Shown in pieces: positions 13,233 through 28,820 of a DNA stretch of 64,000 nt. The stretch lies in IMG/VR virus record IMGVR_UViG_3300038461_000154; one strand, written 5' to 3'. The position numbers and the translations under genes were made by a program. Within the stretch, counting starts at the first letter, position 1; each line of letters starts with the position of its first letter. Source of the DNA: an uncultured virus (IMG/VR IMGVR_UViG_3300038461_000154). Taxonomy: Duplodnaviria; Heunggongvirae; Uroviricota; Caudoviricetes. Below the pieces are notes generated by a model. It saw nothing but the letters and a program-made list of their open reading frames with translations. It was not told the origin of the DNA and did not search any database.

Positions 13233-13439
13233 CTAAAATCTCTTCTGGCTGGTTACCAACTGTTCTAGCCAATAAGGACATTCTTTCGGTGGTGGATTAC
13301 CGATACGAGTAGTGCCGAAAGGACAAGCAATAACATCAAGTTTCCATCCTGATTCAAAATAGGCAGGCAACACTATGGAAGTAATAACTTTCCTGTAATA
13401 TACGTTGTAGCATTTTCGGCAGACTTCTTTATTAAGCAT
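13233..13439 (-). CDS. CPYLE family Cys-rich protein
   Basis: Family motifs. Confidence 0.85.
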   Translation of the reverse strand: MLNKEVCRKCYNVYYRKVITSIVLPAYFESGWKLDVIACPFGTTRIGNPPPKECPYWLEQLVTSQKRF

Positions 13440-13677
13440 GACAAACATCCTCACAAACCAAATGCTCCATAGCATAGATACATGCGTGAGGCGGTTCATA
13501 TCCGATACTCACATGGAAAAGCATACCACCGAAACGGTCTACGCAAGGCGCATATTTTTCTTCTGCCCATCTCTTTTCAAAATTGTCAAAAGAAGTCCAT
13601 ACCTCATATTTGTAAGGCGGCTTATGGCTTTGATGCCATTGAATGCAGCACTTCCGGCAAATCTCTTTATTGAGCAT
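13432..13677 (-). CDS. CPYLE family Cys-rich protein
   Basis: Family motifs. Confidence 0.85.
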   Translation of the reverse strand: MLNKEICRKCCIQWHQSHKPPYKYEVWTSFDNFEKRWAEEKYAPCVDRFGGMLFHVSIGYEPPHACIYAMEHLVCEDVCHA

Positions 13678-13879
13678 GGACAATGTGCTCCAAAACATAC
13701 GGACAAATTTCAGGCGGTATTATAATTGAATCTTCACCAACAGGCAAGTGAATACATTTGAATTCGTTTTTATTCCAATGGTCTGACATAATGTGCCACC
13801 AAAGGCAGATATCATTCTCTTCGAAACCATTTTCATCAAGATAGCGATTAACGCAGTTTTCACATACTCGCCTATTCAT
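13667..13879 (-). CDS. CPYLE family Cys-rich protein
   Basis: Family motifs. Confidence 0.85.
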   Translation of the reverse strand: MNRRVCENCVNRYLDENGFEENDICLWWHIMSDHWNKNEFKCIHLPVGEDSIIIPPEICPYVLEHIVHAQ

Positions 13880-14093
13880 TGACAACGTGCTCCAAAATAT
13901 AAGGGCAATCTTTTGGCACTTCTCCTTTTGATGACCTACCAAACGGTGCTTTAGTTGGATTTGATGAACAAATAACAAGATTGCTGTCATCCCAATTCCT
14001 ATCAAAAAGCCATTTCAAATACTTAAAATATTCAGGGCTTTGATGCTTTTCTTTATCCATACAACACTTTTTGCAAATCTCCTTATTAAGCAT
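13872..14093 (-). CDS. CPYLE family Cys-rich protein
   Basis: Family motifs. Confidence 0.85.
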   Translation of the reverse strand: MLNKEICKKCCMDKEKHQSPEYFKYLKWLFDRNWDDSNLVICSSNPTKAPFGRSSKGEVPKDCPYILEHVVNE

Positions 14094-14346
14094 TGACTAG
14101 ATGCTCCATAAGATATGGGCAATCCGCTGGTGCTTCATCCGTAGTGTTCTGCATACGAATGTTATCCAAGCACGTCAGAGTACACCAAATTCTACCGTTA
14201 TTCCAACCCTTGTTGAAGTTTTTTCCGTACTCTGAATATTGAAAGGTGTTTTGTAGCCGTGTAGGAAAGTCTGCATAGGTTTTATCCCATTGCTGCTTAG
14301 AACACTTGAAACAAACGTCATGGCTCACTGGCGTCTTAATTAGCAT
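14086..14346 (-). CDS. CPYLE family Cys-rich protein
   Basis: Family motifs. Confidence 0.85.
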   Translation of the reverse strand: MLIKTPVSHDVCFKCSKQQWDKTYADFPTRLQNTFQYSEYGKNFNKGWNNGRIWCTLTCLDNIRMQNTTDEAPADCPYLMEHLVNA

Positions 14347-14557
14347 AATAGTGGACTTCCTCTTGCATTACCATTTGTTCTAAGGCGTAAGGGCATTCAG
14401 GAGGCGGGTCAAGTTCAGGCTGTGTGACAACCAAACCACGACTATAGACACCACAGAAAAGCAATCGTCTGCTCCAATCAAGGTCAAATACCCCGCTCTT
14501 TCTCAAAGTCTTACTGCGATTTTGATAGCACTTGTAGCACACCTGTTTGTTCAGCAT
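14336..14557 (-). CDS. CPYLE family Cys-rich protein
   Basis: Family motifs. Confidence 0.85.
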   Translation of the reverse strand: MLNKQVCYKCYQNRSKTLRKSGVFDLDWSRRLLFCGVYSRGLVVTQPELDPPPECPYALEQMVMQEEVHYYAN

Positions 14558-14739
14558 TTAAGCGGTCCATCCTTTTCCCACTCCAATTTGTCTTTAATCA
14601 TCCGGCGCATTCTACCAGCAAGCCGTTTATTTGATTGTTCTACCACCGGCAAAGCTTCGGCAATCATGTCTTCAAGGCGAAGAGTTAGTTTCGCAAGTTC
14701 CCAAATACGTCTTTGTTCGGGAGTGAGTTTTGTTTTCAT
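14551..14739 (-). CDS. non-family helical protein embedded in array
   Basis: Coupled overlaps on both sides. Confidence 0.7.
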   Translation of the reverse strand: MKTKLTPEQRRIWELAKLTLRLEDMIAEALPVVEQSNKRLAGRMRRMIKDKLEWEKDGPLKC

Positions 14740-14999
14740 ACTTCGTCTCCATTCAACAAGTGTTCTAGCTCATAAGAACAAAAATCAGGCAGGCTTCCTC
14801 TATTACTTATTACATCATACACATCGTCAGAAGCTCTTTTCAAACAAGGCGCGAGTCCTTTAATCCATTGCCTCTCAAATTCATTTATATGCACCCACGG
14901 TCTGTAATGATGATACGGATTCGTTGCCTCTTGATAAGGCCAGCAGTGTGCCTTGTGCCATTTGACTAGACATTGATAGCATACCTCTTTGTTTAACAT
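14736..14999 (-). CDS. CPYLE family Cys-rich protein
   Basis: Family motifs. Confidence 0.85.
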   Translation of the reverse strand: MLNKEVCYQCLVKWHKAHCWPYQEATNPYHHYRPWVHINEFERQWIKGLAPCLKRASDDVYDVISNRGSLPDFCSYELEHLLNGDEV

Positions 15000-15484
15000 A
15001 ACAGCTTTACCAACTTTCTTACAGCATCGCAAAACTTGTAGAAATCATCAAAGTCTGATTTGAAAGAATTAGGACGCACTTTCAGTGTTTCAAAGTACGG
15101 GCCTACAAAAAAGAGAAGCGTGAACAATACCGCAAGCATAACGGCCATAGTAATGACTTCTGTGTGTCTGTGCCAAAAGTACCTAGCTCGTATTTTGAAT
15201 CTGCCATAGCCCACAGGTTCCGTAATGGTATGTTCCAAAAGGTACGGACAATCAGTTGGCGGCTTTTCAAGAATGAATTTATAGGCGTGCTTGAATGTGC
15301 CCAAATGACAAAGGCAATTGTACTTTTTCCAATGTTCTTCAAAGTAGGCATCGGGAAGCTTCTTTTCAAATTCAAGCTGTATACCGTTGTGATAAACGGC
15401 AATTGGTCTAAGAGTATTCGGGTATTTGCAATCCGATGTCCAGTATTTCTTGAAGCATCGGTGACAGAGTTTCTTATTTAGCAT
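14993..15484 (-). CDS. CPYLE family protein with C-terminal transmembrane segment
   Basis: Family motifs plus VITMAVMLAVLFTLLFFVG. Confidence 0.85.
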   Translation of the reverse strand: MLNKKLCHRCFKKYWTSDCKYPNTLRPIAVYHNGIQLEFEKKLPDAYFEEHWKKYNCLCHLGTFKHAYKFILEKPPTDCPYLLEHTITEPVGYGRFKIRARYFWHRHTEVITMAVMLAVLFTLLFFVGPYFETLKVRPNSFKSDFDDFYKFCDAVRKLVKLLC

Positions 15485-15719
15485 GTGAATGCTCCTCTTG
15501 ATTCACAAGCTGTTCTACGGCGTAAGGACAATTCTCTGGAATACCCCATGGTGGAAAAAATTGGTCGAAAAACCGGCAGAGACAAAAAGTATTCGTACCC
15601 CAATTGTTCTCAAAAAACTCTCGTTCTTTTTCAAGCGTGGGCACATAGCCATTGCCTTTAGGGCATCTCTTTCTGTACTCAACATAGCACTTAAAGCACA
15701 CTTCTTTGTTTAGGTACAT
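15474..15719 (-). CDS. CPYLE family Cys-rich protein
   Basis: Family motifs. Confidence 0.85.
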   Translation of the reverse strand: MYLNKEVCFKCYVEYRKRCPKGNGYVPTLEKEREFFENNWGTNTFCLCRFFDQFFPPWGIPENCPYAVEQLVNQEEHSHAK

Positions 15720-15720
15720 T

Positions 15721-16053
15721 TTAGTATCCGCAGTAATGAGCCACTACCGGGAATGTGACAACGAATACCATATACCAACCAATCATAAAAAACAAAAGAT
15801 GAACGTTAGATTTCTGTTCATCTTTGGTACGCATGTAAAAATGACCGAAACGCGGGCCGATAGCGAGCAAGCCTATAAAAGCCAAAAACATCAAATTCAT
15901 GTGAACGAATTGGACTTGACCATACCAATAATCAGGGTTTTGAGGCCAAATGAAATCGGGAAGGTGACGCATGAAATTGAAACGGCCTACTGCAAACAGA
16001 ATAAAAAGCATGATAGCAATAAGGCCAAAGTAAATGCCAACAATGGTTTTCAT
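15721..16053 (-). CDS. three-TM membrane protein embedded in array
   Basis: Three hydrophobic segments. Confidence 0.75.
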   Translation of the reverse strand: MKTIVGIYFGLIAIMLFILFAVGRFNFMRHLPDFIWPQNPDYWYGQVQFVHMNLMFLAFIGLLAIGPRFGHFYMRTKDEQKSNVHLLFFMIGWYMVFVVTFPVVAHYCGY

Positions 16054-16277
16054 ACAAGTTTTCCTTCCTGAGTGGCTAACATCTGTTCAAGGATGTAGAC
16101 ACAATTTTTATGAGGGATATCTGTGATTTTCTTGTCATATATGTCTTTGACCCAATAAGGACAATAGCAAATGCCTTTTTTATCCCATGCTTTGTCAAAC
16201 CATTTTCTACCAGCATTCGGGTTAGGATATACAACAACTTCTAAATAGCATTTGCAACAAATTTCTTTATTAAGCAT
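16050..16277 (-). CDS. CPYLE family Cys-rich protein
   Basis: Family motifs. Confidence 0.85.
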   Translation of the reverse strand: MLNKEICCKCYLEVVVYPNPNAGRKWFDKAWDKKGICYCPYWVKDIYDKKITDIPHKNCVYILEQMLATQEGKLV

Positions 16278-16278
16278 A

Positions 16279-16503
16279 TTACAATTCGCCCTTTTGATTT
16301 GCCAATATCTGTTCAAGAATGTAAGGGCAATTATCATGTGGTGACGCTCTGGTAATGTGCATATCGTTCAAGCCGCCAACAAAATGCGGACAGTAGCACA
16401 CCTGTCTTTTCCATGCTTCCTCAAACCAAATATGAGCCATGTGTTTGTTATGGCGTTTGTCGGCTGTGATATAACACTGCTTACACACGGCTTTGGCAAG
16501 CAT
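16279..16503 (-). CDS. CPYLE family Cys-rich protein
   Basis: Family motifs; promoter motif at 16532. Confidence 0.85.
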   Translation of the reverse strand: MLAKAVCKQCYITADKRHNKHMAHIWFEEAWKRQVCYCPHFVGGLNDMHITRASPHDNCPYILEQILANQKGEL

Positions 16504-16566
16504 GTGATAATTCCCCTTCTCTCTTTGGAGTATATCGTAAAAGACGAGCGGATTTTGAAATGTAAA

Positions 16567-16842
16567 TCAAATTTGTGGCGATTGTGTGCTTATAGCTTGT
16601 TCTAGCAAATAATAGCAATCGTTTGGCGGTGGTTCATAAATAGACGTGAAACCAAAATGAAGTGCATCATTCATAAGAGGACAAGCGCACAATTCCTTCA
16701 AATCCCAAGCCTCATTAAAATACAGAGTGTGGAATTCCTCTTCGCCAACTTTCACCGGCTCTTTGACGTGATGAGCATAAGCGTTGACTATTCCCATATG
16801 GTGTTTTACATAACAGCGAAGACAAAGTTCCTTATTGAGCAT
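16567..16842 (-). CDS. CPYLE family Cys-rich protein
   Basis: Family motifs. Confidence 0.85.
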   Translation of the reverse strand: MLNKELCLRCYVKHHMGIVNAYAHHVKEPVKVGEEEFHTLYFNEAWDLKELCACPLMNDALHFGFTSIYEPPPNDCYYLLEQAISTQSPQI

Positions 16843-17026
16843 TGACGCTATGCTCCAAAACATAGAAACACTTTTTCAAGCACGGCACATCAACTTTTTC
16901 CATTCTATCCCCCTTCACGCAATGAGGGCAGTAAACATAATTTCTATTCCACAAAAGTTCTTCAAACATTGTCCATTCCCAACGTTGTTTTTGATAGCAG
17001 CATTGACAGATTGCTTTAGTGAGCAT
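16832..17026 (-). CDS. CPYLE family Cys-rich protein
   Basis: Family motifs. Confidence 0.85.
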   Translation of the reverse strand: MLTKAICQCCYQKQRWEWTMFEELLWNRNYVYCPHCVKGDRMEKVDVPCLKKCFYVLEHSVNAQ

Positions 17027-17237
17027 TGACACTATGTTCCAAAATAAAAGGGCAATCTTTAGGCGGGTCTTTGTCAGTATCAGCTATACGAAAGTTTGAA
17101 TGACTTGTAATTTTGCCGTGTTTACAAATGCAACATCCGTCATTCCAATACAGCAAAAACATGGATTGCGTTATGGGAGAATGCCATTCAAGCGGGTCAA
17201 CTCTGAAACAATGAAGACAGATTGCTTTAATTAGCAT
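17016..17237 (-). CDS. CPYLE family Cys-rich protein
   Basis: Family motifs. Confidence 0.85.
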   Translation of the reverse strand: MLIKAICLHCFRVDPLEWHSPITQSMFLLYWNDGCCICKHGKITSHSNFRIADTDKDPPKDCPFILEHSVNAH

Positions 17238-17463
17238 TTACAAGGTGCTCCAAAACGTAATGGCAATGTTTGGGCGGTGGTTCTGTAATTTTGCTCCTAC
17301 CAAAAGGCAAGACACAGCAAATAGCTTCACCTTTTTCCCACGCGCTTTCAAACCACTTGTCAAAACACTCTTTAACAACAGGAGAATTATCAATACCTGC
17401 TTGAACATCTGCCTGACGATGAGTGCTGGTGAAACATTCGTAGCAGACAGCTTTACTAAGCAT
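17227..17463 (-). CDS. CPYLE family Cys-rich protein
   Basis: Family motifs. Confidence 0.85.
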   Translation of the reverse strand: MLSKAVCYECFTSTHRQADVQAGIDNSPVVKECFDKWFESAWEKGEAICCVLPFGRSKITEPPPKHCHYVLEHLVNAN

Positions 17464-17486
17464 CGTAATAACTTCCTCAAATGGCA

Positions 17487-17804
17487 TTATACAAGAGGAA
17501 TGCCTTTATTGACAATATGTTCAAGGAAATATGGACAGTTCTCTTGTGGTGGTTTGTAGTTGTAAACCAAACTACCATGCTCACGAATCAAACAGCAGCA
17601 AATGAAGTATCCGTATGTCCATTCAGCTTCAAAATCATAAGGGCATGGCTTAGTATCACCACACCAAGGCTGTAAAGTGTTTTTCACATAACAATGCCAA
17701 CAAACTTCTTTATTGAGTTTTGGTTTATGTTCCCGGCAGTCTTTTCGCAAGACTCGCTTATGTGAGTCAAAGTAGCATCTAAAACAAAACTTTTTACCTA
17801 GCAT
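17487..17804 (-). CDS. CPYLE family protein with doubled N-terminal CxxC
   Basis: MLGKKFCFRC then LNKEVCWHC. Confidence 0.85.
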   Translation of the reverse strand: MLGKKFCFRCYFDSHKRVLRKDCREHKPKLNKEVCWHCYVKNTLQPWCGDTKPCPYDFEAEWTYGYFICCCLIREHGSLVYNYKPPQENCPYFLEHIVNKGIPLV

Positions 17805-17994
17805 GTTCTTCCGCCAAAATGTGTTCTAAAGTGTACGGACATTGATATGATGGTTCGCCGTCAATCCATCTCCATTTTGCCCACTCAAGCACATAGCAAT
17901 AAACCTGCCTTTTACCCCAAAGGTTTTCATCATACTGAGTCCAACCTATGCCCGTATGTATTCTACAGGCTCTACAAATTTCTTTACTTAGCAT
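17794..17994 (-). CDS. CPYLE family Cys-rich protein
   Basis: Family motifs. Confidence 0.85.
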   Translation of the reverse strand: MLSKEICRACRIHTGIGWTQYDENLWGKRQVYCYVLEWAKWRWIDGEPSYQCPYTLEHILAEEHAR

Positions 17995-18193
17995 TGACTA
18001 TATGCTCCAATTCATAAAGACAATAATATTCTGGTTTTTCGTCTATGCAGCGCCAAAAGCCAAGAAAAACGTCATTATCACGAACTGGTGGGCAGTAGAC
18101 TTCTTTATCACGCTTCCATCTTATTTTGTCAATGCGACACCAACCAATGCCGTGTATTTCGTGACACTTCTTACAAACTCTTTTACTTAGCAT
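17984..18193 (-). CDS. CPYLE family Cys-rich protein
   Basis: Family motifs. Confidence 0.85.
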   Translation of the reverse strand: MLSKRVCKKCHEIHGIGWCRIDKIRWKRDKEVYCPPVRDNDVFLGFWRCIDEKPEYYCLYELEHIVNAK

Positions 18194-18383
18194 TGACTAC
18201 GTGCTCCAATTCGTAAGGACAACTTTGTTGGAGTCTACCGCGCCGATTATACCAACTCCAATTGTTCTTTGAAACTTCTGACGGGCAGAACACATAATTA
18301 TTATGCCACGCTTCTTCATCAACATAATCCCACACACTTTTGTTTGTACGATGACACTTTTTACAGACCGTTTTACTCAACAT
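18183..18383 (-). CDS. CPYLE family Cys-rich protein
   Basis: Family motifs. Confidence 0.85.
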   Translation of the reverse strand: MLSKTVCKKCHRTNKSVWDYVDEEAWHNNYVFCPSEVSKNNWSWYNRRGRLQQSCPYELEHVVNAK

Positions 18384-18720
18384 TTGTGCTCACCAAATGC
18401 TCTAGGGTGTAAGGGCAATTCAAGTGCGGTTCCTTTTCAATCCAACGCAAACCGTTTATGTCATGGGGGTGTTTTTTAGCAGTACAAAACACCACTCTGC
18501 CATAGTTCCAAGAAGTTTCAATGGGTTTATCCCAAACCCAATTATTGACCTTGTAACACTTCTTACAAACTGCCTTGCTTAGCTTTGGCCTCATATAGTC
18601 GTATGTTTTATCCATCAGCGTCTTTTTTAACACTTGATGTAGCTCCGCAACTTTTTGAGCCGTCTGATAAAGCGATTCACAGGGCAATTGCGCTGTCTTG
18701 CCCTCATCATATATGCCCAT
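18373..18720 (-). CDS. CPYLE family protein with N-terminal extension
   Basis: Family module after about 45 extra residues. Confidence 0.8.
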   Translation of the reverse strand: MGIYDEGKTAQLPCESLYQTAQKVAELHQVLKKTLMDKTYDYMRPKLSKAVCKKCYKVNNWVWDKPIETSWNYGRVVFCTAKKHPHDINGLRWIEKEPHLNCPYTLEHLVSTNVE

Positions 18721-18726
18721 TCTCGT

Positions 18727-18951
18727 CTACTTTTGTTCATCATTTTTCTCATTCACCACGTGCTCCAAATAAAAAGGGCAGTGCTCTGTAGGTTCACCCG
18801 TTCGATTATACCAGCCTCTCACGCGGCTTATCGCATCTTTTAGATACATACAATATACAACGTTACCATTATCCCATTGGTCTTCATCATAAGTATCCCA
18901 AAGAAAATTCTTTGTTTCATGACACCGTTTGCAAATATGTTTATTTAGCAT
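18727..18951 (-). CDS. CPYLE family Cys-rich protein
   Basis: Family motifs. Confidence 0.85.
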   Translation of the reverse strand: MLNKHICKRCHETKNFLWDTYDEDQWDNGNVVYCMYLKDAISRVRGWYNRTGEPTEHCPFYLEHVVNEKNDEQK

Positions 18952-19165
18952 ATAATGTCTGTTCCAAAAGATAAGGACATTCATCTGGTGGGGTGCCTAT
19001 AACGTCAGTGAATACTGCCAATGTCGGGTCAAATGTTTTATAATGACTGTTGTAACCTGCTTGACAAAATACTTTGCCATATTCCCAATCTTCTTCAAAA
19101 AAGGATGGTGGTTCGCTTGCTCGTTTGGCTTGATAACACTTCCGGCAGACCACTTTATTCAGCAT
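18941..19165 (-). CDS. CPYLE family Cys-rich protein
   Basis: Family motifs. Confidence 0.85.
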   Translation of the reverse strand: MLNKVVCRKCYQAKRASEPPSFFEEDWEYGKVFCQAGYNSHYKTFDPTLAVFTDVIGTPPDECPYLLEQTLYAK

Positions 19166-19373
19166 GGCTTTGTTCCATTAAAAGATGCTCCAATACATAA
19201 GGGCAATCTTTGGCAGGCGGATAAAAAGTTCTGTTATTACCACCATTCACCATACCTACTCCACAATGTACTAAATAAAAAGGATGATTCCAATTCTGCT
19301 CAAAAAATTCTCGTGCAGTAGAGCATATATCTCTTTTTAAGTAACAATGAAGGCAAATGGCTTTATTCAGCAT
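19155..19373 (-). CDS. CPYLE family Cys-rich protein
   Basis: Family motifs. Confidence 0.85.
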   Translation of the reverse strand: MLNKAICLHCYLKRDICSTAREFFEQNWNHPFYLVHCGVGMVNGGNNRTFYPPAKDCPYVLEHLLMEQSHAE

Positions 19374-19572
19374 GGCTTTGTTCCACTATAAGATGCTCTA
19401 AAACATAAGGGCAATGGTCAGGTGGTGATAATACCGTAGAATGATAACAACCGTAAGTCTCCGTAGTATTACAAAACACAGAATGAATTTTTTTCCATGT
19501 AGAATCATCGTGCCTATCCCATTTCCAGCCCAAATTTCTATAACACTTTTTGCAGATACTTTTATTCAGCAT
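19363..19572 (-). CDS. CPYLE family Cys-rich protein
   Basis: Family motifs. Confidence 0.85.
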   Translation of the reverse strand: MLNKSICKKCYRNLGWKWDRHDDSTWKKIHSVFCNTTETYGCYHSTVLSPPDHCPYVLEHLIVEQSHAE

Positions 19573-19750
19573 TGACTATATGCTCCAAAACATAAGGGCA
19601 TTCTATCGGCGGCTCGTTCACTTTATAAAGCGTGGAGTAGTAATTGTTTTTCATCACACAGCCACAATACACAAGACCCAAGTTCCAAAATTTCAGAAAG
19701 TTGTGTTCATACCGTACTTTGCACTGTTGACAGATATCATAGTTCAACAT
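19562..19750 (-). CDS. CPYLE family Cys-rich protein
   Basis: Family motifs. Confidence 0.85.
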   Translation of the reverse strand: MLNYDICQQCKVRYEHNFLKFWNLGLVYCGCVMKNNYYSTLYKVNEPPIECPYVLEHIVNAE

Positions 19751-19944
19751 GGCCGTTTACTCGCTACAAGGTGTTCCAAAACATATGGGCATTCTTTTGG
19801 CGGTTCATCATGTTTAACGTCAAGGTTATAGTACCCATGGCCAACCATCGCGCAAGCACAATGGACAAAACCCATTTTCCAATACTTGAAAAAGAGATAC
19901 ACATACCTTGACTTGCATTGGTGACAAACTTCTTTGTTCAACAT
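19744..19944 (-). CDS. CPYLE family Cys-rich protein
   Basis: Family motifs. Confidence 0.85.
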   Translation of the reverse strand: MLNKEVCHQCKSRYVYLFFKYWKMGFVHCACAMVGHGYYNLDVKHDEPPKECPYVLEHLVASKRPC

Positions 19945-20162
19945 GATTCTTGTTCCTGTAACAAATGCTCTAAAAAGTATGGGCAATCTTCTGGCGGTAG
20001 TTTCGCAATTTCCCGTCTGCCAGTTTTGCTGAGAGAACCCCAACAAATCGTCCAGCCGGTATCCCACATATTTTCAAACGTTTGGTATATTGGTGATGTG
20101 GTGCCTAGAATCCTTTGGGCTTCCGTATAAAAGCACTTATGGCACACTTCTCTATTCAGCAT
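19938..20162 (-). CDS. CPYLE family Cys-rich protein
   Basis: Family motifs. Confidence 0.85.
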   Translation of the reverse strand: MLNREVCHKCFYTEAQRILGTTSPIYQTFENMWDTGWTICWGSLSKTGRREIAKLPPEDCPYFLEHLLQEQESC

Positions 20163-20395
20163 TTTTCGTATCTCTTGTGCGGTGGAACTGAGATATGCCA
20201 ACAACCCGCGTCATGGCATTCTCGCACTCTTGGTTTGAAAGCTTTACCACACTTCGGGCAACGGACTAATGATGGTATCTTGTGTTCATTCATTTTTGTC
20301 TTGATTTTTGAATGCTCGCGCTCACCCCAATGATTGCTTACGTCTTGAGCGTCTGTACAACACCAAACAAGTTTTCGTGGTTTTTTGTTCAGCAT
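20156..20395 (-). CDS. non-family Zn-finger protein carrying the MLNKK start
   Basis: CPKC..H; no CPYxLE. Confidence 0.75.
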   Translation of the reverse strand: MLNKKPRKLVWCCTDAQDVSNHWGEREHSKIKTKMNEHKIPSLVRCPKCGKAFKPRVRECHDAGCWHISVPPHKRYEKC

Positions 20396-20604
20396 GATTT
20401 CTGCCCCGCCATTAAGTGTTCAAGAATGTACGGGCATTTGTCATGTGGTGGTTTGTCAATAGACTGTGCAAATGGACTAACCATCCAATCATCGTTAGCC
20501 GGAATACAACAAACAATTCCTTGACGCCAAAAGTATTCATCCTCATCCCATTGTTGATGATAAGCATTCATAAGGCACTTCTTACAAACATTTTTATTGA
20601 GCAT
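20389..20604 (-). CDS. CPYLE family Cys-rich protein
   Basis: Family motifs. Confidence 0.85.
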   Translation of the reverse strand: MLNKNVCKKCLMNAYHQQWDEDEYFWRQGIVCCIPANDDWMVSPFAQSIDKPPHDKCPYILEHLMAGQKSC

Positions 20605-20842
20605 AAACAAGATGCTCTAAAAGGTACGGACAATCTGGTGGTGGTTCCTCAACAATCTTCATCGGTTCGCTATTGCCATATTCGGGACAGTTACAAATGC
20701 CTTTATCCCATGCGTTATAGAAATTAACAAGTAATTGTTTTCGGTATGCGTTATCGTTGTACCATACCGCATAATATCCGGCGCAACACTTCGCGCAACA
20801 CTCTTTGTTCAGCTTTGGAATACTGTCACAAGCCGTTCCCAT
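20594..20842 (-). CDS. CPYLE family Cys-rich protein
   Basis: Family motifs. Confidence 0.8.
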   Translation of the reverse strand: MGTACDSIPKLNKECCAKCCAGYYAVWYNDNAYRKQLLVNFYNAWDKGICNCPEYGNSEPMKIVEEPPPDCPYLLEHLVYAQ

Positions 20843-21072
20843 ACCGACATTATACGAGATTTAGGTTCCTGATTCAAGACTTGTTCTAAAAGGTATTGGC
20901 AATCTTCTGGCAGGGGCGGTCCAATGTTTATCGCCCTTGACTTGTACGGGCAATAACATAAACCCACTCGCCAATACATTTCAAATGCTTCTTCGTTGCA
21001 ATGGGAGAATAGCGTAAAAGATTCACGCACACGATTCTTATAACACATAAAACAGATAGATTTAACAAGCAT
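20809..21072 (-). CDS. CPYLE family Cys-rich protein
   Basis: Family motifs. Confidence 0.85.
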   Translation of the reverse strand: MLVKSICFMCYKNRVRESFTLFSHCNEEAFEMYWRVGLCYCPYKSRAINIGPPLPEDCQYLLEQVLNQEPKSRIMSVWERLVTVFQS

Positions 21073-21484
21073 TGATAATATGCTCCAAAAGATACGGGCA
21101 AAAATCGGGTGGTTGACCATTGATGCTATGTTGCTCTTGCGAGTCTTCAAATATATCAGTCGTCGGCACAGGGCAATCTACAATATAATAGTATTTCCAA
21201 TTGTACTCGTCTTCTTCCCACCACTTTCCGTTCATTTGGTGCTCTGTAACACATTTCATACAAAGCTTTTTATTCAGCATTATTTTGCCCTTGCCATATT
21301 GAGTATTAGTGGTTTGCTCCAAAAGGTACACGCAATTATCCGGTGGGGCCGCTTTAATAATAGGAAGTGTATGGTTATTATAAGGGCAGTAACATTTCTT
21401 GTACTTGCGCCAATGTGTTTCAACGCTCCACTTACCTATCCTGTGTTTATCCCAACATCTTTTGCAAATAGCCTTTTTAAGCAT
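21062..21484 (-). CDS. CPYLE family two-module fusion protein
   Basis: Two complete modules in frame, no stop between. Confidence 0.8.
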   Translation of the reverse strand: MLKKAICKRCWDKHRIGKWSVETHWRKYKKCYCPYNNHTLPIIKAAPPDNCVYLLEQTTNTQYGKGKIMLNKKLCMKCVTEHQMNGKWWEEDEYNWKYYYIVDCPVPTTDIFEDSQEQHSINGQPPDFCPYLLEHIINAC

Positions 21485-21698
21485 TGACTGTATGCTCCAA
21501 AACATAAGGACAATACTCTGGCGGCTCACCTTTTGTGTCCAATGTTTTCGTGCCTTTAGTGAATTTCTGACTCCAATGAGCGCAATAAACCTCTTTTGCC
21601 CTCCAAGCTCTCTTGAAGCATATCCGAATGTAATGCTCATCGTGCTCTTTAAGCCAATCATTCAATTGGCAATTGAGACAGATTTCTTTTTTAAGCAT
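21477..21698 (-). CDS. CPYLE family Cys-rich protein
   Basis: Family motifs. Confidence 0.85.
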   Translation of the reverse strand: MLKKEICLNCQLNDWLKEHDEHYIRICFKRAWRAKEVYCAHWSQKFTKGTKTLDTKGEPPEYCPYVLEHTVNA

Positions 21699-21903
21699 TG
21701 ACGATATGCTCCAAAAAGTAAGGGCAACCATCGGGCGGTTCTCCATTGATGCCGGTAAATGTAAAACCCCTTTCTCCCGTCCACAGCTTTACTCTGCATC
21801 TTACAAAACCCATTCCCCAACGCAACCAAAACCCATCATAGTCAATGTGGGTCTTTTTATCATTCTCTAACGCACATTTGTAGCATATCTCACTACTCAG
21901 CAT
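21691..21903 (-). CDS. CPYLE family Cys-rich protein
   Basis: Family motifs. Confidence 0.85.
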   Translation of the reverse strand: MLSSEICYKCALENDKKTHIDYDGFWLRWGMGFVRCRVKLWTGERGFTFTGINGEPPDGCPYFLEHIVNA

Positions 21904-22129
21904 GAACAAGTTGCTCCAAAATATACGGGCAATCATCTGGAGGATTATCAGTTATGTCCACTAGGTGTGAAGCTAAAACACTGGCTGTGCGGTCAGTTCC
22001 TTTTCCATTCCACTGCTCACATAACATGTAACTTGTCGTAGACCAACGGAATTCAAATGTTTGCGATGATAGCTGGTCATTGCCGTATCTGTTAAAATAG
22101 CATTGTCGGCAAATATCTTTATTGAGCAT
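21893..22129 (-). CDS. CPYLE family Cys-rich protein
   Basis: Family motifs. Confidence 0.85.
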   Translation of the reverse strand: MLNKDICRQCYFNRYGNDQLSSQTFEFRWSTTSYMLCEQWNGKGTDRTASVLASHLVDITDNPPDDCPYILEQLVHAE

Positions 22130-22358
22130 AAGGAGCCTCTTGATTCACCATTTGTTCAAGCGCGAAAGGACATTTTGGAGGTGGTGGATGTCTGATTGGT
22201 GTAAAACCAATATAAGCTATGAAGCAGTTTGTGTTTTGGTAGCTCCAATGTTTTTCAAAGTCGGCAATCAGAGCTTCCTGCTGTTCTGACGTGATGTTCT
22301 TAATAGGATACGGCCTGTTTTCAAGCCAACAATGTAGACACACCTTTTTATTTAACAT
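22119..22358 (-). CDS. CPYLE family Cys-rich protein
   Basis: Family motifs. Confidence 0.85.
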   Translation of the reverse strand: MLNKKVCLHCWLENRPYPIKNITSEQQEALIADFEKHWSYQNTNCFIAYIGFTPIRHPPPPKCPFALEQMVNQEAPYAQ

Positions 22359-22582
22359 GAAATTATATGCTCCAAAAGGTATGGGCATTGTACAGGTGGC
22401 TGATTTTCAATTGGAATAATATATGACGCTCCATCAAATGCACTTGAACAAAATACCAATTTCTCTTCATTCCATCGTTCTTCATCCCTTTGGTTCCACC
22501 ATTCGCCAGTCCATCTTGGGTCAAAATCCATTGACCGAAAATGTGCTATCACACAAGCTTTACAAACCTTTTTGTTAAGCAT
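22352..22582 (-). CDS. CPYLE family Cys-rich protein
   Basis: Family motifs. Confidence 0.85.
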   Translation of the reverse strand: MLNKKVCKACVIAHFRSMDFDPRWTGEWWNQRDEERWNEEKLVFCSSAFDGASYIIPIENQPPVQCPYLLEHIISC

Positions 22583-22817
22583 CAGAAACCCCTTGACTCA
22601 CCAAGTGTTCAAGGGTGTAAGGGCACGTCTCTGGTGGTTTTCCATCTATTCTAGGATAATCGGGTCCATCGAATGGCATCTTTAAGTATTCAGGGCAGTT
22701 ACATTGCTTATATTTACGCCATATTTGATGAAAGGCTATCAGCATATTTGTTCGGCCAATGACATACTTCGCCACTCTGTTTTTGAAGCATCGTTGACAA
22801 ATTTTTTTATTCAACAT
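22575..22817 (-). CDS. CPYLE family Cys-rich protein
   Basis: Family motifs. Confidence 0.85.
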   Translation of the reverse strand: MLNKKICQRCFKNRVAKYVIGRTNMLIAFHQIWRKYKQCNCPEYLKMPFDGPDYPRIDGKPPETCPYTLEHLVSQGVSDA

Positions 22818-23020
22818 GATTCATTCACCAAATGTTCAAGCTGATAGGGGCATTTTTTTGGTGGCTCATTGCCAATGCTTATTGCAACATGTGAATAATC
22901 AACCTTATATGGACAAAAAACAATTTTCTCTTTTGTCCAATGATGTTCATCAAAGTCAACCCAACCAAGAGAATCATGATAATGTATAAGACAATGTTTG
23001 CAAACCTTTTTGTTTAACAT
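22811..23020 (-). CDS. CPYLE family Cys-rich protein
   Basis: Family motifs. Confidence 0.85.
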   Translation of the reverse strand: MLNKKVCKHCLIHYHDSLGWVDFDEHHWTKEKIVFCPYKVDYSHVAISIGNEPPKKCPYQLEHLVNESC

Positions 23021-23286
23021 GCCTTTCCCCATGTTTTCCTGCACCAACTATACAATTTATCCTTCATGCTTTGTTCTGGATTCTGGTCTGAAACAAGCTG
23101 TTCAAGTTCATAAGGGCATTGCTTCGGTGGTGGTCCATGAATAGACCAACTTTCATTGAGTGTGGCGCAAAGGCATATCTCGCTTCTCCACCAATCATTA
23201 AATCCTTTCAATGTAATAAGTTCATCGTGGTTTGGGCTACGCTGGTGTTTATCGAAGCACTTTAAGCAAATCTTTTTATTGAGCAT
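23014..23286 (-). CDS. CPYLE family Cys-rich protein
   Basis: Family motifs. Confidence 0.85.
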   Translation of the reverse strand: MLNKKICLKCFDKHQRSPNHDELITLKGFNDWWRSEICLCATLNESWSIHGPPPKQCPYELEQLVSDQNPEQSMKDKLYSWCRKTWGKAC

Positions 23287-23524
23287 TGATGACATGCTCC
23301 AAAATATAAGGGCAATCAGCAGCCGGAAGCGCAGCAAAAGCCTTCGCAATTCCTGCCATATCTTCCTTATAATGCCCTTGGCGAATCCCAAGCAGTCCTT
23401 TACGAACCATGCAAAAAAGTATCTTATTTTTCCATTCTATTTCAAAATGCGTCGTAGAGGTATCTTTACCCCAACTAAGGTAACGCTGTTGGTAACAATG
23501 CTCGCACACTTCTTTTTTAACCAT
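23276..23524 (-). CDS. CPYLE family Cys-rich protein
   Basis: Family motifs (MVKK start). Confidence 0.85.
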   Translation of the reverse strand: MVKKEVCEHCYQQRYLSWGKDTSTTHFEIEWKNKILFCMVRKGLLGIRQGHYKEDMAGIAKAFAALPAADCPYILEHVINAQ

Positions 23525-23768
23525 TGACAATATGCTCCAACAGATACGGACACGCCCTTATCAATCTCGCGTTTTTTGTTTTCCTTTTCTTTGACTTATC
23601 CCAAAAGTCATGGAAGTCTTTATTTAGGCAAATCCAATTTCCCTGTTCCACACACCACAACACACCTCTTCCCCAATCTTCATTAAACACTTGTTCTGAC
23701 CACGATGCTATTAACATCGTTGCTCTTGCTTCCTTACAGCACTGCAAACAAATCGCCTTATTCAACAT
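23517..23768 (-). CDS. CPYLE family Cys-rich protein
   Basis: Family motifs. Confidence 0.85.
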   Translation of the reverse strand: MLNKAICLQCCKEARATMLIASWSEQVFNEDWGRGVLWCVEQGNWICLNKDFHDFWDKSKKRKTKNARLIRACPYLLEHIVNG

Positions 23769-23967
23769 TGACAGTGTGCTCCAATAAATACGGGCAATCA
23801 TTAAGCGGCAACAAATCAAACACACATAATGGTCCAGCATCAACTCCTATTTTAGTTATACACTCAAGCCGTCTGTTTTTCCAATCAGGTTCAAATGTGA
23901 GTATCCAAAAGCCATTATGAGGCTTCCTGCTTTCGTAACAGTGTCGGCACACCTCCTTTTTAACCAT
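23758..23967 (-). CDS. CPYLE family Cys-rich protein
   Basis: Family motifs (MVKK start). Confidence 0.85.
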   Translation of the reverse strand: MVKKEVCRHCYESRKPHNGFWILTFEPDWKNRRLECITKIGVDAGPLCVFDLLPLNDCPYLLEHTVNVE

Positions 23968-24232
23968 TGTGCATCATGTGCTCCAACAGGTATGGACAAT
24001 TTTCTGGTGGTTCTCTGTACGTGCGTTGTTTATGAGGAGAACCCTTACAATGTGGGCAAGTACAAAGTTCAACTCTCCACATACGGGCAAACGATTCCAT
24101 GAATGCCGTCATGCTTCGTGGGCGCATTTCACGTTTTACGTATTCTCTAACACATAATCTACATGCTTTTCTATTTAGCATGAATTCTCTAAAAAATGAT
24201 TTTGGTATATAAGGCATATTCTGTTTAAGCAT
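23960..24232 (-). CDS. CPYLE family Cys-rich protein
   Basis: Family motifs; second in-frame MLNRK at 24181. Confidence 0.8.
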   Translation of the reverse strand: MLKQNMPYIPKSFFREFMLNRKACRLCVREYVKREMRPRSMTAFMESFARMWRVELCTCPHCKGSPHKQRTYREPPENCPYLLEHMMHNG

Positions 24233-24452
24233 TGACAATATACTCCAAAATGTACGGGCAATTTTTTGGAGGGTTGCTTGTTGAAACAGACAAGTTAGCT
24301 TTACCGACATTTCTATGAGGACACATGCAATATCCATCTTCCCAAAAATCATTGAATGTGCTTATATAGTAGTCAATACTGTCCTTGACCCAATCAGGAT
24401 GTCTCTTACAATACTGTTCTACGCAAAGTTTACAAAATTTCTTGTTAAGCAT
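24225..24452 (-). CDS. CPYLE family Cys-rich protein
   Basis: Family motifs. Confidence 0.85.
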   Translation of the reverse strand: MLNKKFCKLCVEQYCKRHPDWVKDSIDYYISTFNDFWEDGYCMCPHRNVGKANLSVSTSNPPKNCPYILEYIVNA

Positions 24453-24645
24453 TGACCACTTGCTCCAAAAGATAAGGGCAGCTATCAGGTGGTTGTTTTC
24501 TTGTGTCGCATTCAACGGTTGCTAATTCTAAATCATCTGAAGGACAATTAACCATTCCTCTTTTTTCCCAATCATCTAAAAACCTAGACCACGCTATCCA
24601 AAAACGTTTCTGATAACACTGTGCGCATATTTTCTTGTCAAGCAT
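24445..24645 (-). CDS. CPYLE family Cys-rich protein
   Basis: Family motifs. Confidence 0.85.
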   Translation of the reverse strand: MLDKKICAQCYQKRFWIAWSRFLDDWEKRGMVNCPSDDLELATVECDTRKQPPDSCPYLLEQVVNA

Positions 24646-24838
24646 TGATAACATGCTCCAAAAGATATGGACAGTTACTCGGTGGTTCATCTTTTATCCA
24701 AGTTCTAGCAGCAACCATAGGCACTTGAGATTTGTTTGGCGGGCATATAACATAACCATATTCCCAATCGGTTATAAAGAGATATGCCATTGTATACCGC
24801 TTATTGTAACAGCGTCGGCATATTTTATTGTTAAGCAT
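24638..24838 (-). CDS. CPYLE family Cys-rich protein
   Basis: Family motifs. Confidence 0.85.
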   Translation of the reverse strand: MLNNKICRRCYNKRYTMAYLFITDWEYGYVICPPNKSQVPMVAARTWIKDEPPSNCPYLLEHVINA

Positions 24839-25100
24839 TGGTAGACTCCAAACTAACCACATGCTCAAGCACATAAGGACATCGCCAATCAGGTTTGTCT
24901 GTGATTTCAGTATAATGAGATTGCCACGCATAATTATTATTGTCAGCAGTGTTTTTGTCTCTGCACCAAGGTTCTGGGAAAACACAAAAAACTCTGCCAT
25001 TATTCCATTCCAAAGGGAAAAGTTTTTCTACTGCTGCCCAAGTTGTATGTTTTGGGTAGTATTTTTCACAACATCGTTTGCATATCTCTTTATTAAGCAT
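24831..25100 (-). CDS. CPYLE family Cys-rich protein
   Basis: Family motifs. Confidence 0.85.
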   Translation of the reverse strand: MLNKEICKRCCEKYYPKHTTWAAVEKLFPLEWNNGRVFCVFPEPWCRDKNTADNNNYAWQSHYTEITDKPDWRCPYVLEHVVSLESTNA

Positions 25101-25362
25101 TGACGGTATGCTCCAAAAGATACGGGCACTTACTTATCAACTCATCGTTCAATTTTTTATTATATGCCCCTCCTATACCTTCAAAAGTCATTGACTTGGC
25201 TCTTTTAGTTTTTGGTCCATCGGTTAGCCAAATCCATGCTTGTTGTCTACCACAATCTACTACTCCAATTTTCCAAAAGTCATCAAATATGCTTTCATAA
25301 AAAGCAAATTCGTGTTTTAGTCTCTCTTTACAACAGCATAGACAAATCGCTTTATTAAGCAT
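25093..25362 (-). CDS. CPYLE family Cys-rich protein
   Basis: Family motifs. Confidence 0.85.
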   Translation of the reverse strand: MLNKAICLCCCKERLKHEFAFYESIFDDFWKIGVVDCGRQQAWIWLTDGPKTKRAKSMTFEGIGGAYNKKLNDELISKCPYLLEHTVNA

Positions 25363-25555
25363 TGACTGTATGCTCCAAAACGTAAGGACAATCAGGTGGC
25401 AAACTACTAAATTTGTAAGACAATTTACCTTCCAAATTCGGCATACAATCGAGCGTTTTATTTTTCCAATCGTCAGATAGCCACTTCTTTCCATCAGAAT
25501 GGTATCTCTTCACATAACAACGTTCGCAAATCTTCTTAACCATTGATGCACTCAC
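25355..25555 (-). CDS. CPYLE family Cys-rich protein
   Basis: Family motifs (MVKK). Confidence 0.8.
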   Translation of the reverse strand: MSASMVKKICERCYVKRYHSDGKKWLSDDWKNKTLDCMPNLEGKLSYKFSSLPPDCPYVLEHTVNA

Positions 25556-25902: not shown

Positions 25903-26093
25903 TTGATGCTTCTCCTAAAAGGTTTCTCCACAGACCTTCTAACTGTCACCAATTGTATATCGTTAGTTCACTCCGTTCTAGTGAAATCTTTAGGCTTCGA
26001 AATGAAAACGCCCCTTAGAATTACCCAAGAGGCACTATCATTGTAATTTAGGTTTATCTTAGCCATTCATTTCTTGTGCTTGAGCCGCGATGC

Positions 26094-26883: not shown

Positions 26884-27177
26884 TTAACTTACCGTGTGTT
26901 CAAGCAAGTACGAACACTTATCTGGCGGCTTTAAGCGTAGCGTGAACATTATATCCATCTGCAAAGGCGGAAAACTATCAACTTGGCATTCTGAGCCTTT
27001 TATCGGGCATGGTACTCTTCTATCATAATTGCTAAGCATTATTTTGAACCATTCATTGTATTGGAAATCAAGATTAGGTATTTCCTTTTCCATGTCGGCA
27101 GGAGTCCACACCCCACTACGGCAGAAGGACTTTTTCAACATTTCTTTGATGCACTTCTTGCAAACTCTTTTATTCAT
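26884..27177 (-). CDS. CPYLE family Cys-rich protein (long subfamily)
   Basis: Family motifs; similar to 27174. Confidence 0.85.
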   Translation of the reverse strand: MNKRVCKKCIKEMLKKSFCRSGVWTPADMEKEIPNLDFQYNEWFKIMLSNYDRRVPCPIKGSECQVDSFPPLQMDIMFTLRLKPPDKCSYLLEHTVS

Positions 27178-27476
27178 GCTGTCACCGTGTGCTCCAAAAC
27201 ATAAGGGCATTCTGTTGGCGGGTTGGACCGCGATGTACAGAATACCTCTAATTGTAACGGTTCAAACATCAACCCATGACATTTTGACGAATCTACAATC
27301 GGGCAAGGAACTTTACCACCACCGCTAGTGACTTTTTCAAACCAATCGCCTATCTGATGGTCTAAGTAAGGCATTTCTTTTTTGATGTCTTCTAAAGTCC
27401 ACGTTCCTGTTTGTTCGCAGAAACACTTTCTCAGTCCTTCGTCAACACACTTTTTGCAAATCGTTTTGTTTAACAT
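27174..27476 (-). CDS. CPYLE family Cys-rich protein (long subfamily)
   Basis: Family motifs. Confidence 0.85.
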   Translation of the reverse strand: MLNKTICKKCVDEGLRKCFCEQTGTWTLEDIKKEMPYLDHQIGDWFEKVTSGGGKVPCPIVDSSKCHGLMFEPLQLEVFCTSRSNPPTECPYVLEHTVTA

Positions 27477-27480
27477 TGAC

Positions 27481-27813
27481 TCACTCCATAGCCAAACATG
27501 ATTTAACCGATGTCACTGTATGTTCAAGTACATAAGGACAATTTTCTAGCGGCTTCGGTATTAAAACATAGAAGTAAACCAAATCGAGAGGATAATAAGG
27601 AATCATTTCGTGGTCATAGGATTCTCTATCTTTATCACCTATATAATTGAAACATGGTGCCATAAGATATCCTTTGGCCCACAGTTCATTAAACCACAAG
27701 TCGAATTGTTTTTCGTGATTCAATAACACAGCTTCTTTCATGTTTCCAAAAACACTAATATATCGTCCTTTCAAATATTGTTTTATACATCGTCTGCAAC
27801 ATTCTTTATTCAT
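27481..27813 (-). CDS. CPYLE family Cys-rich protein (long subfamily)
   Basis: Family motifs. Confidence 0.85.
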   Translation of the reverse strand: MNKECCRRCIKQYLKGRYISVFGNMKEAVLLNHEKQFDLWFNELWAKGYLMAPCFNYIGDKDRESYDHEMIPYYPLDLVYFYVLIPKPLENCPYVLEHTVTSVKSCLAME

Positions 27814-28073
27814 TGGTTCACCGTATGTTCTAAAAGGTATGGACAGTTGTGTGGTGGAAATTCTTGTATTGAACGATTACGCACTTCATCTGGAACATTC
27901 AACTCGGCACAAAAATAAGTGCAATAGACTTCACCAATTTTCCATTGCTTGTGAAAGAAGTCCATTATCTTCTTATAGTGGTATTTTTTCTCTTTGTTGC
28001 TGTAAGACAAAGATGCCATCAAGCATTTTGAGTCGGTTTTTCTACATCTCAAACAAGCAGCTTTGTTTTTCAT
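27810..28073 (-). CDS. CPYLE family Cys-rich protein
   Basis: Family motifs. Confidence 0.85.
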   Translation of the reverse strand: MKNKAACLRCRKTDSKCLMASLSYSNKEKKYHYKKIMDFFHKQWKIGEVYCTYFCAELNVPDEVRNRSIQEFPPHNCPYLLEHTVNQ

Positions 28074-28279
28074 TGCCCCACCAATTGTTCCATGTAGAAG
28101 TGGCATTCTTCTATTGGGCCGCATCTAACGTCACTGCTAAAATGCTCCTCACACCAAACCAAATTAGCGTTCTTCCAATTCCATTCGTCAAGTATACCCC
28201 AACCCACCGCAAGGTCAAATTGATTCGGCTTCTGTTTTCTGTTCGCTTTACACTTTATGCAAATTTCTTTATTCAACAT
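28070..28279 (-). CDS. CPYLE family Cys-rich protein
   Basis: Family motifs. Confidence 0.85.
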   Translation of the reverse strand: MLNKEICIKCKANRKQKPNQFDLAVGWGILDEWNWKNANLVWCEEHFSSDVRCGPIEECHFYMEQLVGQ

Positions 28280-28530
28280 TGGTTCACCGTATGTTCAAGT
28301 AAATATTCACATCCTTCGGGTAGAACAAAATCCTTATTGTATTTAGGAGACACATTCACAAGCGCATCCCGGTAAGTCACCAATGCTATTTCATCTTCGG
28401 AAAAACCTTCTCTGCATCTTCGCACATTGTCTCTGACTATTGGAGACAACCTATCACAAAACACAAGAAAACCATTATCGTATGGTATCCAATTCAAATG
28501 CTTACACAAATGGCACGCTTTGTAGTTCAT
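28273..28530 (-). CDS. CPYLE family Cys-rich protein
   Basis: Family motifs. Confidence 0.85.
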   Translation of the reverse strand: MNYKACHLCKHLNWIPYDNGFLVFCDRLSPIVRDNVRRCREGFSEDEIALVTYRDALVNVSPKYNKDFVLPEGCEYLLEHTVNQC

Positions 28531-28820
28531 TGTGTCACCGTATGTTCTGTAATGTAGGGGCACGATTCAGGCGGTATTGTTCTCTTCATGTAGAAGTATC
28601 TCTTCTTAAAATGCGGATACCACTCAGAATCTAAATGTTGACTTTCTATTTCACCATAAACCGTTGGGAGATGATAACAAGGTGACTTATCTTCGCACAA
28701 AGACCACAGTTGTTTGAACCATGCAGTAAATCGTTCGTCGTGATGCTGTTCTTCTTGGAAACCATGTATATAGCTTCCCATGAATTTCTTAACGCATCTA
28801 GCACAACACTCTCTGTTCAT
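28527..28820 (-). CDS. CPYLE family Cys-rich protein (long subfamily)
   Basis: Family motifs; 3' end near-identical to 28817. Confidence 0.85.
   Translation of the reverse strand: MNRECCARCVKKFMGSYIHGFQEEQHHDERFTAWFKQLWSLCEDKSPCYHLPTVYGEIESQHLDSEWYPHFKKRYFYMKRTIPPESCPYITEHTVTQ

Follow-up and report, generated by a model that had tools for sequence, protein, structure and literature searches.

The sequence analysed here, called the window, comprises the first 64,000 nucleotides (nt) of a linear, 126,653-nt record from an uncultured virus (IMG/VR IMGVR_UViG_3300038461_000154), which covers part of its genome (CheckV 68%) and is present in peat metagenome runs. It contains head-to-tail arrays of small paralogous genes whose products follow the consensus MLNKxxCxxC…F…W..G…C…PPxxCPYxLEHxV. 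At a subset of the gene junctions there is an inverted repeat, GAGCAT-N7-ATGCT, in which a first-pass annotation of the window had seen either a regulatory hairpin or a recombination site. A profile built from 66 seeds of the contig matched 198 open reading frames (ORFs) at E < 0.001, of which 182 are encoded by the minus strand and 16 by the plus strand; this count is partly circular, as the 66 seeds are among the matches. A start could be called for 195 of these ORFs; together they sum to 48.4 kb, corresponding to 38% of the contig, and 126 of the 195 are located in the window. The encoded proteins have a median length of 78 residues. Since the identity of the variable core to that of the best paralogue has a median of 31% and exceeds 50% in only 4 of the 195, the copies are, as judged from their sequences, old duplicates and not the outcome of recent amplification. 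The family genes are distributed along the window as follows:

8714..10075, minus strand: block of 5 family genes
11302..15719, minus strand: tandem block of about 16 family genes
16050..25543, minus strand: main tandem block of 41 family genes, overlapping head to tail, which carries the repeat finding
26884..31086, minus strand: block of about 13 longer and more diverged family genes
37758..45698, minus strand: tandem block of 31 family genes, with mostly long-tail junctions and few repeats
46171..47353, plus strand: four opposite-strand family genes converging on the minus-strand block, with a matching block in the related contig L008
47317..50107, minus strand: six scattered family genes
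60612..63383, minus strand: block of 12 family genes; more blocks follow past the window, up to 126 kb

The pattern GAGCAT-N7-ATGCT gives 20 strand-matches in the window, compared with 0.08 expected from shuffled sequences. These matches correspond to 15 sites, five of which have perfect 6-bp arms and match on both strands; the whole contig holds 17 sites. The repeat is therefore as real as first reported: all ten coordinates listed in the first-pass annotation are among the 15 sites, and both copies described as perfect, at 16837-16855 and 23281-23299, are perfect 6-bp repeats. On the minus strand, the left arm corresponds to the Glu-His codons of the C-terminal CPYxLEH motif of one gene, and the right arm to the Met-Leu codons of the next one. 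We term a junction tight when the Glu codon and the ATG are spaced by 13 nt, which is the commonest spacing (31 junctions). Between 9 and 25.4 kb lie 25 of the 31 tight junctions, a clustering that suggests the local spread of one junction type. The 15 sites are:

12355..12372, minus strand: tight junction, 5-bp repeat plus G-U
14089..14106, minus strand: tight junction, 5-bp repeat plus G-U
16837..16855, minus strand: tight junction, perfect GAGCAT-N7-ATGCTC (Glu-His codons, 7-nt spacer, Met-Leu start)
17990..18007, minus strand: tight junction, 5-bp repeat
19568..19585, minus strand: tight junction, 5-bp repeat
20599..20617, minus strand: tight junction, perfect 6-bp repeat; its counterpart in the related contig L005 has CAC, which breaks one pair
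21068..21085, minus strand: tight junction ending a gene that is located elsewhere in L005
21480..21497, minus strand: tight junction, 5-bp repeat plus G-U
21694..21711, minus strand: tight junction, 5-bp repeat plus G-U
23281..23299, minus strand: perfect 6-bp repeat at a tight junction, with the most stable isolated hairpin (-6.6 kcal/mol)
24641..24658, minus strand: tight junction, 5-bp repeat plus G-U
25096..25113, minus strand: tight junction, 5-bp repeat plus G-U
25358..25375, minus strand: tight junction, 5-bp repeat plus G-U
40906..40924, minus strand: perfect repeat within a coding tail (E-H-I-V-N-A-Q), the ATG not being a start; internal control
41533..41551, minus strand: perfect repeat within a coding tail (E-H-I-V-D-A-Q), the ATG not being a start; internal control

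The choice of the Glu codon follows the junction distance, as had been proposed. GAG is found in 29 of the 31 tight junctions and in 39 of the 147 junctions that are looser or distant (p = 2e-12, in a test in which the paralogues are not independent); at intermediate distances, 13 of 24 junctions have GAG. The ribosome-binding site (RBS) said to be embedded in these codons was recovered as well, with GGAG ending 10 nt ahead of the ATG in 27 of the 31 tight junctions. For the long-tail junctions, claimed to use GAA and to have a separate GAGG, the first part holds in all four examples and the second in three, the copy near 22592 having AAGGGG instead. It is also correct that not every junction carries the repeat: of the 38 junctions within 16,800-25,400, 19 are tight and 11 have a 5-bp repeat. 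Considering all close junctions, 125 of 141 overlap, chiefly by 4, 7, 8 or 11 nt. The location of an RBS inside the upstream gene is hence supported, and translational coupling is likely in view of these overlaps.

To place the window among its relatives, metagenomes were scanned with a pattern requiring a tight junction, and seven loci were obtained. L005, L006, L008, L009 and L011 are relatives sharing 72-87% DNA identity with the window; L007, which has no family member, was rejected. L010 and the genome fragment G001 are identical in sequence and were treated as a single lineage, with 86 family members within 48.9 kb. Because this related array sits on a 338,312-nt contig (L010), the array-bearing phages are probably jumbo phages. 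When viral contigs were scanned with the strict tight-junction pattern no locus was found, and a scan of viral sequences with a single protein did not detect any relative. A looser junction pattern yielded three viral loci, two from G001 and one (L014/G002) that was discarded as a chance match with 0 family matches, as well as four loci in bacterial genomes, none of them with a family member and hence without a clue to the host.

Upon having confirmed the repeat, the question was what it represents. We consider it quite probable that it is a coding by-product of overlapping gene ends, and that whole genes are in addition shuffled by homology. The Leu-Glu-His codons at the end of one gene, with GGAG as the likely RBS, are separated by 7 nt from the Met-Leu codons that start the following one, and translation would be coupled by termination-reinitiation at the overlaps. 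The alternative put forward in the first-pass annotation was a selected mRNA hairpin hiding the Shine-Dalgarno site and the AUG until the upstream ribosome melts the stem, thereby enforcing coupling. Its geometry does put GAG and AUG in one stem, and isolated hairpins reach -4 to -6.6 kcal/mol; the idea that local structure blocks de novo initiation at overlaps is put forward as a hypothesis for E. coli in a published study (Huber et al., 2019; PMC6728339). The enrichment of GAG cannot tell a hairpin from a Shine-Dalgarno site, because GAG also builds the GGAG located 10 nt before the ATG. The Shine-Dalgarno site is favoured because a G that takes no part in the stem, the one just before GAG, is kept in 27 of the 31 tight junctions and in all 15 tight junctions of the relatives, which read GGAG. 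Moreover, five of the six stem pairs follow from the consensus residues and the GGAG site. The first two null models used for the hairpin ignored the upstream reading frame and were discarded. Once both frames are respected, no excess pairing is left (p 0.11-0.60): a null with the residue preferences of the upstream frame gave p 0.11 for pairs and p 0.60 for energy, and one with both frames fixed gave p 0.28 and p 0.16, respectively. CAT, which the stem requires, is not enriched over CAC (18:7 at tight junctions vs 69:38 elsewhere, p = 0.64), and the 15 tight junctions of the relatives have 8 CAT, 3 CAC and 4 Gln codons. No significant bias is seen in CTN:TTR (27:2 vs 23:7, p 0.15) or in CTY:CTR (17:10 vs 9:14, p 0.16). 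When folded in a 65-nt context, the stem has a median probability of 0.02 and is dominant (above 0.5) in 7 of the 31 tight junctions; even as isolated 19-mers, 5 of 31 do not fold at all. Among the 31 tight junctions, a small sample, there are no compensatory pairs, and the two perfect repeats at 40906 and 41533 are not at start sites. A hairpin would in any case cover only 31 of the 141 close junctions. In the L010/G001 lineage, only 3 of 89 family ends are tight, none of these three with a 5-bp repeat; the commonest spacing there is 22 nt, and for 49 of the 89 no start was called.

Several observations nevertheless weigh against the by-product reading. Compared with the other junctions, tight-junction windows have a somewhat more stable fold (-11.1 vs -9.3 kcal/mol, p = 0.005), and their accessibility is lower (0.42 vs 0.48, p = 0.008). 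Under a null that frees the downstream Leu codon and ignores the upstream frame, pairing is in excess (5.03 vs 4.72 pairs, p 0.0035). Enrichment is also seen for CTC, the Leu codon that makes the stem perfect (11/40 vs 2/37, p = 0.014, own and related loci pooled). Weak selection for pairing may act on these 31 non-independent junctions, and even an unselected stem could have a small physical effect. It should be taken into account that the bases of the Leu codon belong to the upstream frame as well, in which Ala prevails over Val 17:1 even where no start lies. The commonest next residue of that frame is Gln, also in genes without an overlap there, to which the enrichment of CTC may be attributed. 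Taking both sides together, a hairpin selected for its pairing appears decidedly unlikely, and the case is a useful warning that conserved gene ends that overlap can, together with a Shine-Dalgarno site, yield a convincing palindrome without selection for pairing.

The second proposal took the repeat for a tyrosine-recombinase site, with every gene as an integron-like cassette moved in a site-specific manner. Sites of this kind, as well as integron attC cassettes, have inverted arms around a 7-bp spacer and define gene-sized mobile units; the binding arms of tyrosine-recombinase sites measure about 11-13 bp, and their spacer of 6-8 bp is matched between partner sites. The repeat does consist of two inverted arms around 7 bp and the genes do move as units. 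That they behave as exchangeable units is borne out by whole-gene insertions and deletions and by one moved gene among the relatives: L006, L008 and L011 carry extra genes compared with the window, L011 shows a jump of about 14.5 kb, and one gene has changed its place:

21065..21280, minus strand: family gene; in L005 its orthologue is located farther downstream, by three genes

If the repeat were the site, order breaks should be concentrated there, which is not the case. Among 34 junctions with at least one orthologue, the relative carries the repeat at 7 of the 24 that are broken and at 3 of the 10 that are kept (p = 1.0), even though the pattern used to fetch the loci demands a tight junction and should bias this test towards the repeat; 14 of the 24 broken junctions lack it in both genomes. 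In two events that were traced nucleotide by nucleotide, the switch points differ: one lies within the ATG-YTN-AAY-AAR start, the other just past a decayed right arm. The arms are too short, of 5-6 bp, and the G/A pair next to them does not lengthen the stem; the spacer has a fitting length, but 24 different sequences are found in 31, so that spacers are unmatched. Unlike a recombinase site, the repeat is fully protein-coding in two frames. The first-pass annotation had seen no recombinase in the window, and a search for tyrosine and serine recombinases extends this to the contig, which, incomplete as it is, has no match to PF00589 or PF00239; the G001 fragment has no match to PF00589 either. 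A recombinase could still be encoded in the part of the genome that the contig does not cover. Synonymous divergence is as high in the conserved ends as in the core (0.49 vs 0.45), and the ends hence do not look like a DNA site under selection. We regard site-specific recombination at the repeat as extremely improbable.

Homology-driven exchange at the proteins' own conserved ends would be the simplest mechanism to account for these rearrangements. The conserved junction of about 50 nt, with 69% in-register identity over 52 nt among tight junctions, would provide a crossover handle for a general, not a site-specific, recombinase. Exact shared stretches of at least 12 nt occur in 5.7% of sampled junction pairs and in 21% of the 465 tight-tight pairs, compared with 0.1% of core pairs. 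From 32 ends of alignment blocks against the five relatives, two contig ends and the two ends of the block over the opposite-strand genes were set aside; 25 of the 28 informative ends fall between -27 and +51 of a Glu codon. Three points weaken the argument for shuffling by homology: alignment ends are drawn to conserved junctions under any mechanism, some of the junctions scored as broken are probably diverged orthologues, and neither a RecT nor an ERF recombinase was found in the incomplete contig.

We also compared the array among populations, using contigs from 8 of 13 metagenome runs, contigs being known to drop rare variants. The array proved essentially invariant: X1 and X2, possibly the source samples, show 0 differences over 8,500-25,500, and four runs from four studies show one substitution over the array. 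No rearranged joint with long sides was present in the contigs of the 8 runs, to which the same loss of rare variants applies. The 21 joints with sides of 20-49 nt were rejected as paralogous junctions from other contigs, and so was a single joint with a side of 22 nt and loose ends on both sides. At the loose contig ends (e.g. 12361, 19553, 19772, 21937, 24480), other contigs in the same runs have family-like junctions. As five sampled loose ends are not present in the 127-kb record, it is likely that the phage or its close kin has more family copies than counted here. Positions 25500-26060 of the window show dozens of substitutions and small indels in four runs; this polymorphism is limited to a non-family gene and the gap just upstream of the otherwise invariant main array.

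Individual copies of the family are maintained by purifying selection, since the ratio of nonsynonymous to synonymous divergence (dN/dS) is 0.20 over 24 orthologue pairs (core 0.24, ends 0.09), with a synonymous divergence (dS) of about 0.7; the pairs were picked at an identity of at least 60%, which biases the ratio down, and two window genes were used twice. Among 100 aligned members, Cys7, Cys10 and Cys63 are present in all and Cys42 in 99; Glu68 is invariant and Trp34 nearly so, the CxxC motif being N-terminal in this family, and the middle region varies both in length and in sequence. For structure prediction a reference member was chosen:

13872..14093, minus strand: reference member, 73 residues, used for the structure model

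The AlphaFold model (predicted local distance difference test score 88.7) has helices at 4-14, 20-37 and 66-71 and two short strands. The four cysteines would bind one zinc. A Foldseek search found no match at E 0.001 in the PDB or in a viral library; the best VIA-align result (Z 4.4, root-mean-square deviation 1.7, 40 aligned residues) corresponds to helices of ion-channel linkers and does not show a new fold. When 100 of the approximately 195 members were scanned against Pfam, PHROGs, NCBIfam and PADLOC, no family was matched by more than one member (best E 0.003), and none of the 100 matched PHROGs 16571, 14146, 32354 or 28062 at E 0.01. Two members compared with 50,697 annotated phage records gave no match. 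The profile matches 2,721 of 1.84 billion representatives of 50%-identity clusters, some of them from its own genome, and the ESM Atlas returned only unnamed viral clusters with scores below 0.9. In other lineages, two or three family domains are fused head to tail, often ending in CPYAAEH (P0002, P0003, P0004, P0013, P0019, P0025, P0052, P0083); a separate, weak search for longer fused forms did not find any.

With respect to function, a zinc ion held by the four cysteines would clamp the conserved ends into a core displaying the hypervariable middle, and each copy would bind a different host protein, for host takeover or counter-defence. That the family is such a panel of zinc-clamped binders aimed at different host proteins is a tentative reading, somewhat short of even chances; we rank it ahead of nucleic-acid binders and also of a structural or filler role. 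The proteins could instead be regulators that bind DNA or RNA through a zinc finger, or could pack the genome, as has been proposed for the zinc ribbons of phage G. This would agree with the four-cysteine motif, the many Lys and aromatic residues, an isoelectric point above 8 in 85 of the 195 members, and the precedent of phage G itself (PMC7824862). In contrast, net charge ranges from -6 to +7 among the 195 members with a median of +1, and the isoelectric point is below 6 in 45, a spread that argues against one common nucleic-acid ligand and also against uniform DNA mimicry; the conserved positions look structural and form no basic patch, and about 200 regulators would be far beyond the apparent need of such a genome. 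We hence think this role unlikely. The array could also be largely neutral or selfish filler, growing by unequal crossing-over and padding a large capsid. The high turnover between relatives would fit this possibility, as would the start motifs that run into unrelated sequence (20156-20395). Yet dN/dS is 0.24 even in the variable core, with the downward bias of the chosen pairs already mentioned, frames are intact, RBS spacing is kept, and the scarcity of paralogues above 50% core identity does not correspond to recent amplification. Filler is accordingly a very improbable account of the array. 

On a more far-reaching reading, a clade of uncultured very large phages would carry a germline 'binder library', with hundreds of copies of a new zinc-clamped mini-scaffold whose ends would serve at once as folding core, as RBS and coupling signal, and as recombination handle. 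This is a possible but clearly speculative proposal. If it were true, hypervariable binders could be swapped, added and co-expressed in one step, and the phages would have their own equivalent of an antibody or effector repertoire, directed at host defences. Host-directed binders would also represent a large untapped source of counter-defence and host-takeover proteins, as well as a natural scaffold of about 75 residues that tolerates loop changes.

The family was next compared with systems already described. Phage genomes rarely keep many paralogues. The nearest phage case found is the zinc-ribbon expansion of Bacillus phage G, with about 35 copies, which was called unprecedented (Iyer et al., 2021; PMC7824862). 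Both cases share the lineage-specific multiplication of a small cysteine domain of predicted function in a very large phage. Here, unlike in phage G, the 127-kb piece contains about 195 copies, which exceeds the number in phage G more than fivefold; they are arranged in probably coupled tandem arrays, and the predicted fold is mainly helical and not a ribbon. In terms of scale, the closest case is Bodo saltans virus, a eukaryotic giant virus of 1.39 Mb scale whose genomic accordion includes 148 ankyrin-repeat genes (PMC5871332). It likewise has large, mostly co-directional tandem arrays of paralogues, read as anti-host factors of an arms race; its genes have a known repeat fold and are very recent, near-identical duplicates, whereas our record is from a prokaryotic virus, its domain is new, the array takes up a much larger part of the DNA, and the best-paralogue core identity is low, as given above. 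With respect to coupling, termination-reinitiation with intragenic Shine-Dalgarno motifs (Huber et al., 2019; PMC6728339) resembles the junctions described here in the overlap of stop and start and in a Shine-Dalgarno motif inside the last codons of the upstream gene. It differs in that the arrangement, as read from our sequence, is repeated at 125 junctions of one family, with overlaps mostly of 7, 8 and 11 nt and not of 1 or 4. The nearest precedent for shuffling is that of the PeSL cassettes of T4-type phages, short repeats between accessory genes that act as handles for the shuffling of whole genes (Arbiol et al., 2010; PMC2839356). Short repeated sequences between genes would play the same part in the window; PeSLs, in contrast, are non-coding promoter-terminator units, while here the conserved protein ends themselves would be the handle, and mini-circles were not observed. 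A literature search that covered few subscription journals found no description of this family or array. The repeat is thus likely to be ordinary, and the array behind it a new, extreme form of phage paralogue expansion with a predicted function. It represents an uncatalogued domain that accounts for about 195 genes in the 127-kb piece, 86 in 49 kb of a second phage, and 2,721 public clusters.

A promoter-like motif, ACGATAYAMT, is present 5 times in the window vs 0.37 expected. There are 17 looser copies on the gene-bearing (minus) strand of the contig, several of them ahead of array blocks, and some copies lie within or just past the tails of family genes. Expression of the array would proceed from such ACGA-TAyAmT promoters. 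The copies considered are:

3743-3752, minus strand: promoter-like motif
16529..16538, minus strand: promoter-like ACGATATACT, a -10-like hexamer with an ACGA extension, in an array gap
25955..25963, minus strand: looser, variant copy of the promoter-like motif, located upstream of the main block
31110..31119, minus strand: promoter-like motif ahead of a block
44206..44215, minus strand: promoter-like motif inside the 38-46 kb block
45923..45932, minus strand: promoter-like motif ahead of the 38-46 kb block
4296, 49304, 53979 and 55794, minus strand: looser promoter-like copies

Some members of the family depart from the common architecture. The protein encoded at 14993-15484 (minus strand) has a long C-terminal extension including a strongly hydrophobic stretch that is probably membrane-spanning, and similar tails are found in members of L009 and L010. 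At 29653-30297 (minus strand), a 214-residue fusion joins an unrelated cysteine-rich N-terminal domain, with no Pfam match, to the family domain. The ORF at 20156-20395 (minus strand) has the family start MLNKK at a normal junction, followed by unrelated sequence, which suggests that a junction can capture foreign genes.

The genome context was obtained from a PHROGs scan of 79 ORFs (2 family members and 77 chosen by eye from 136 other ORFs of at least 100 residues) and a Pfam scan of 21 ORFs. No integrase was among the matches, and tail-like matches were weak; named matches were DNA methylases, HNH-type nucleases, a polynucleotide kinase/phosphatase, a dCMP deaminase and two 397-residue transposase-family proteins, which we take to be IS605/TnpB-like. 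Their positions, where listed, and those of two tRNA or tRNA-like genes are:

Window 7153-7860, 31210-31956, 26094-26852 and 51797-52732: two DNA methylases, an HNH-type nuclease and a polynucleotide kinase/phosphatase (PHROGs and Pfam scans)
L001 9820-11010 and L002 15531-16721: the two 397-residue transposase-family proteins (PHROGs and Pfam scans)
Window 51473-51548, minus strand: tRNA-Gln(TTG)
Window 58314-58383, minus strand: odd tRNA-like gene with a 4-base anticodon call

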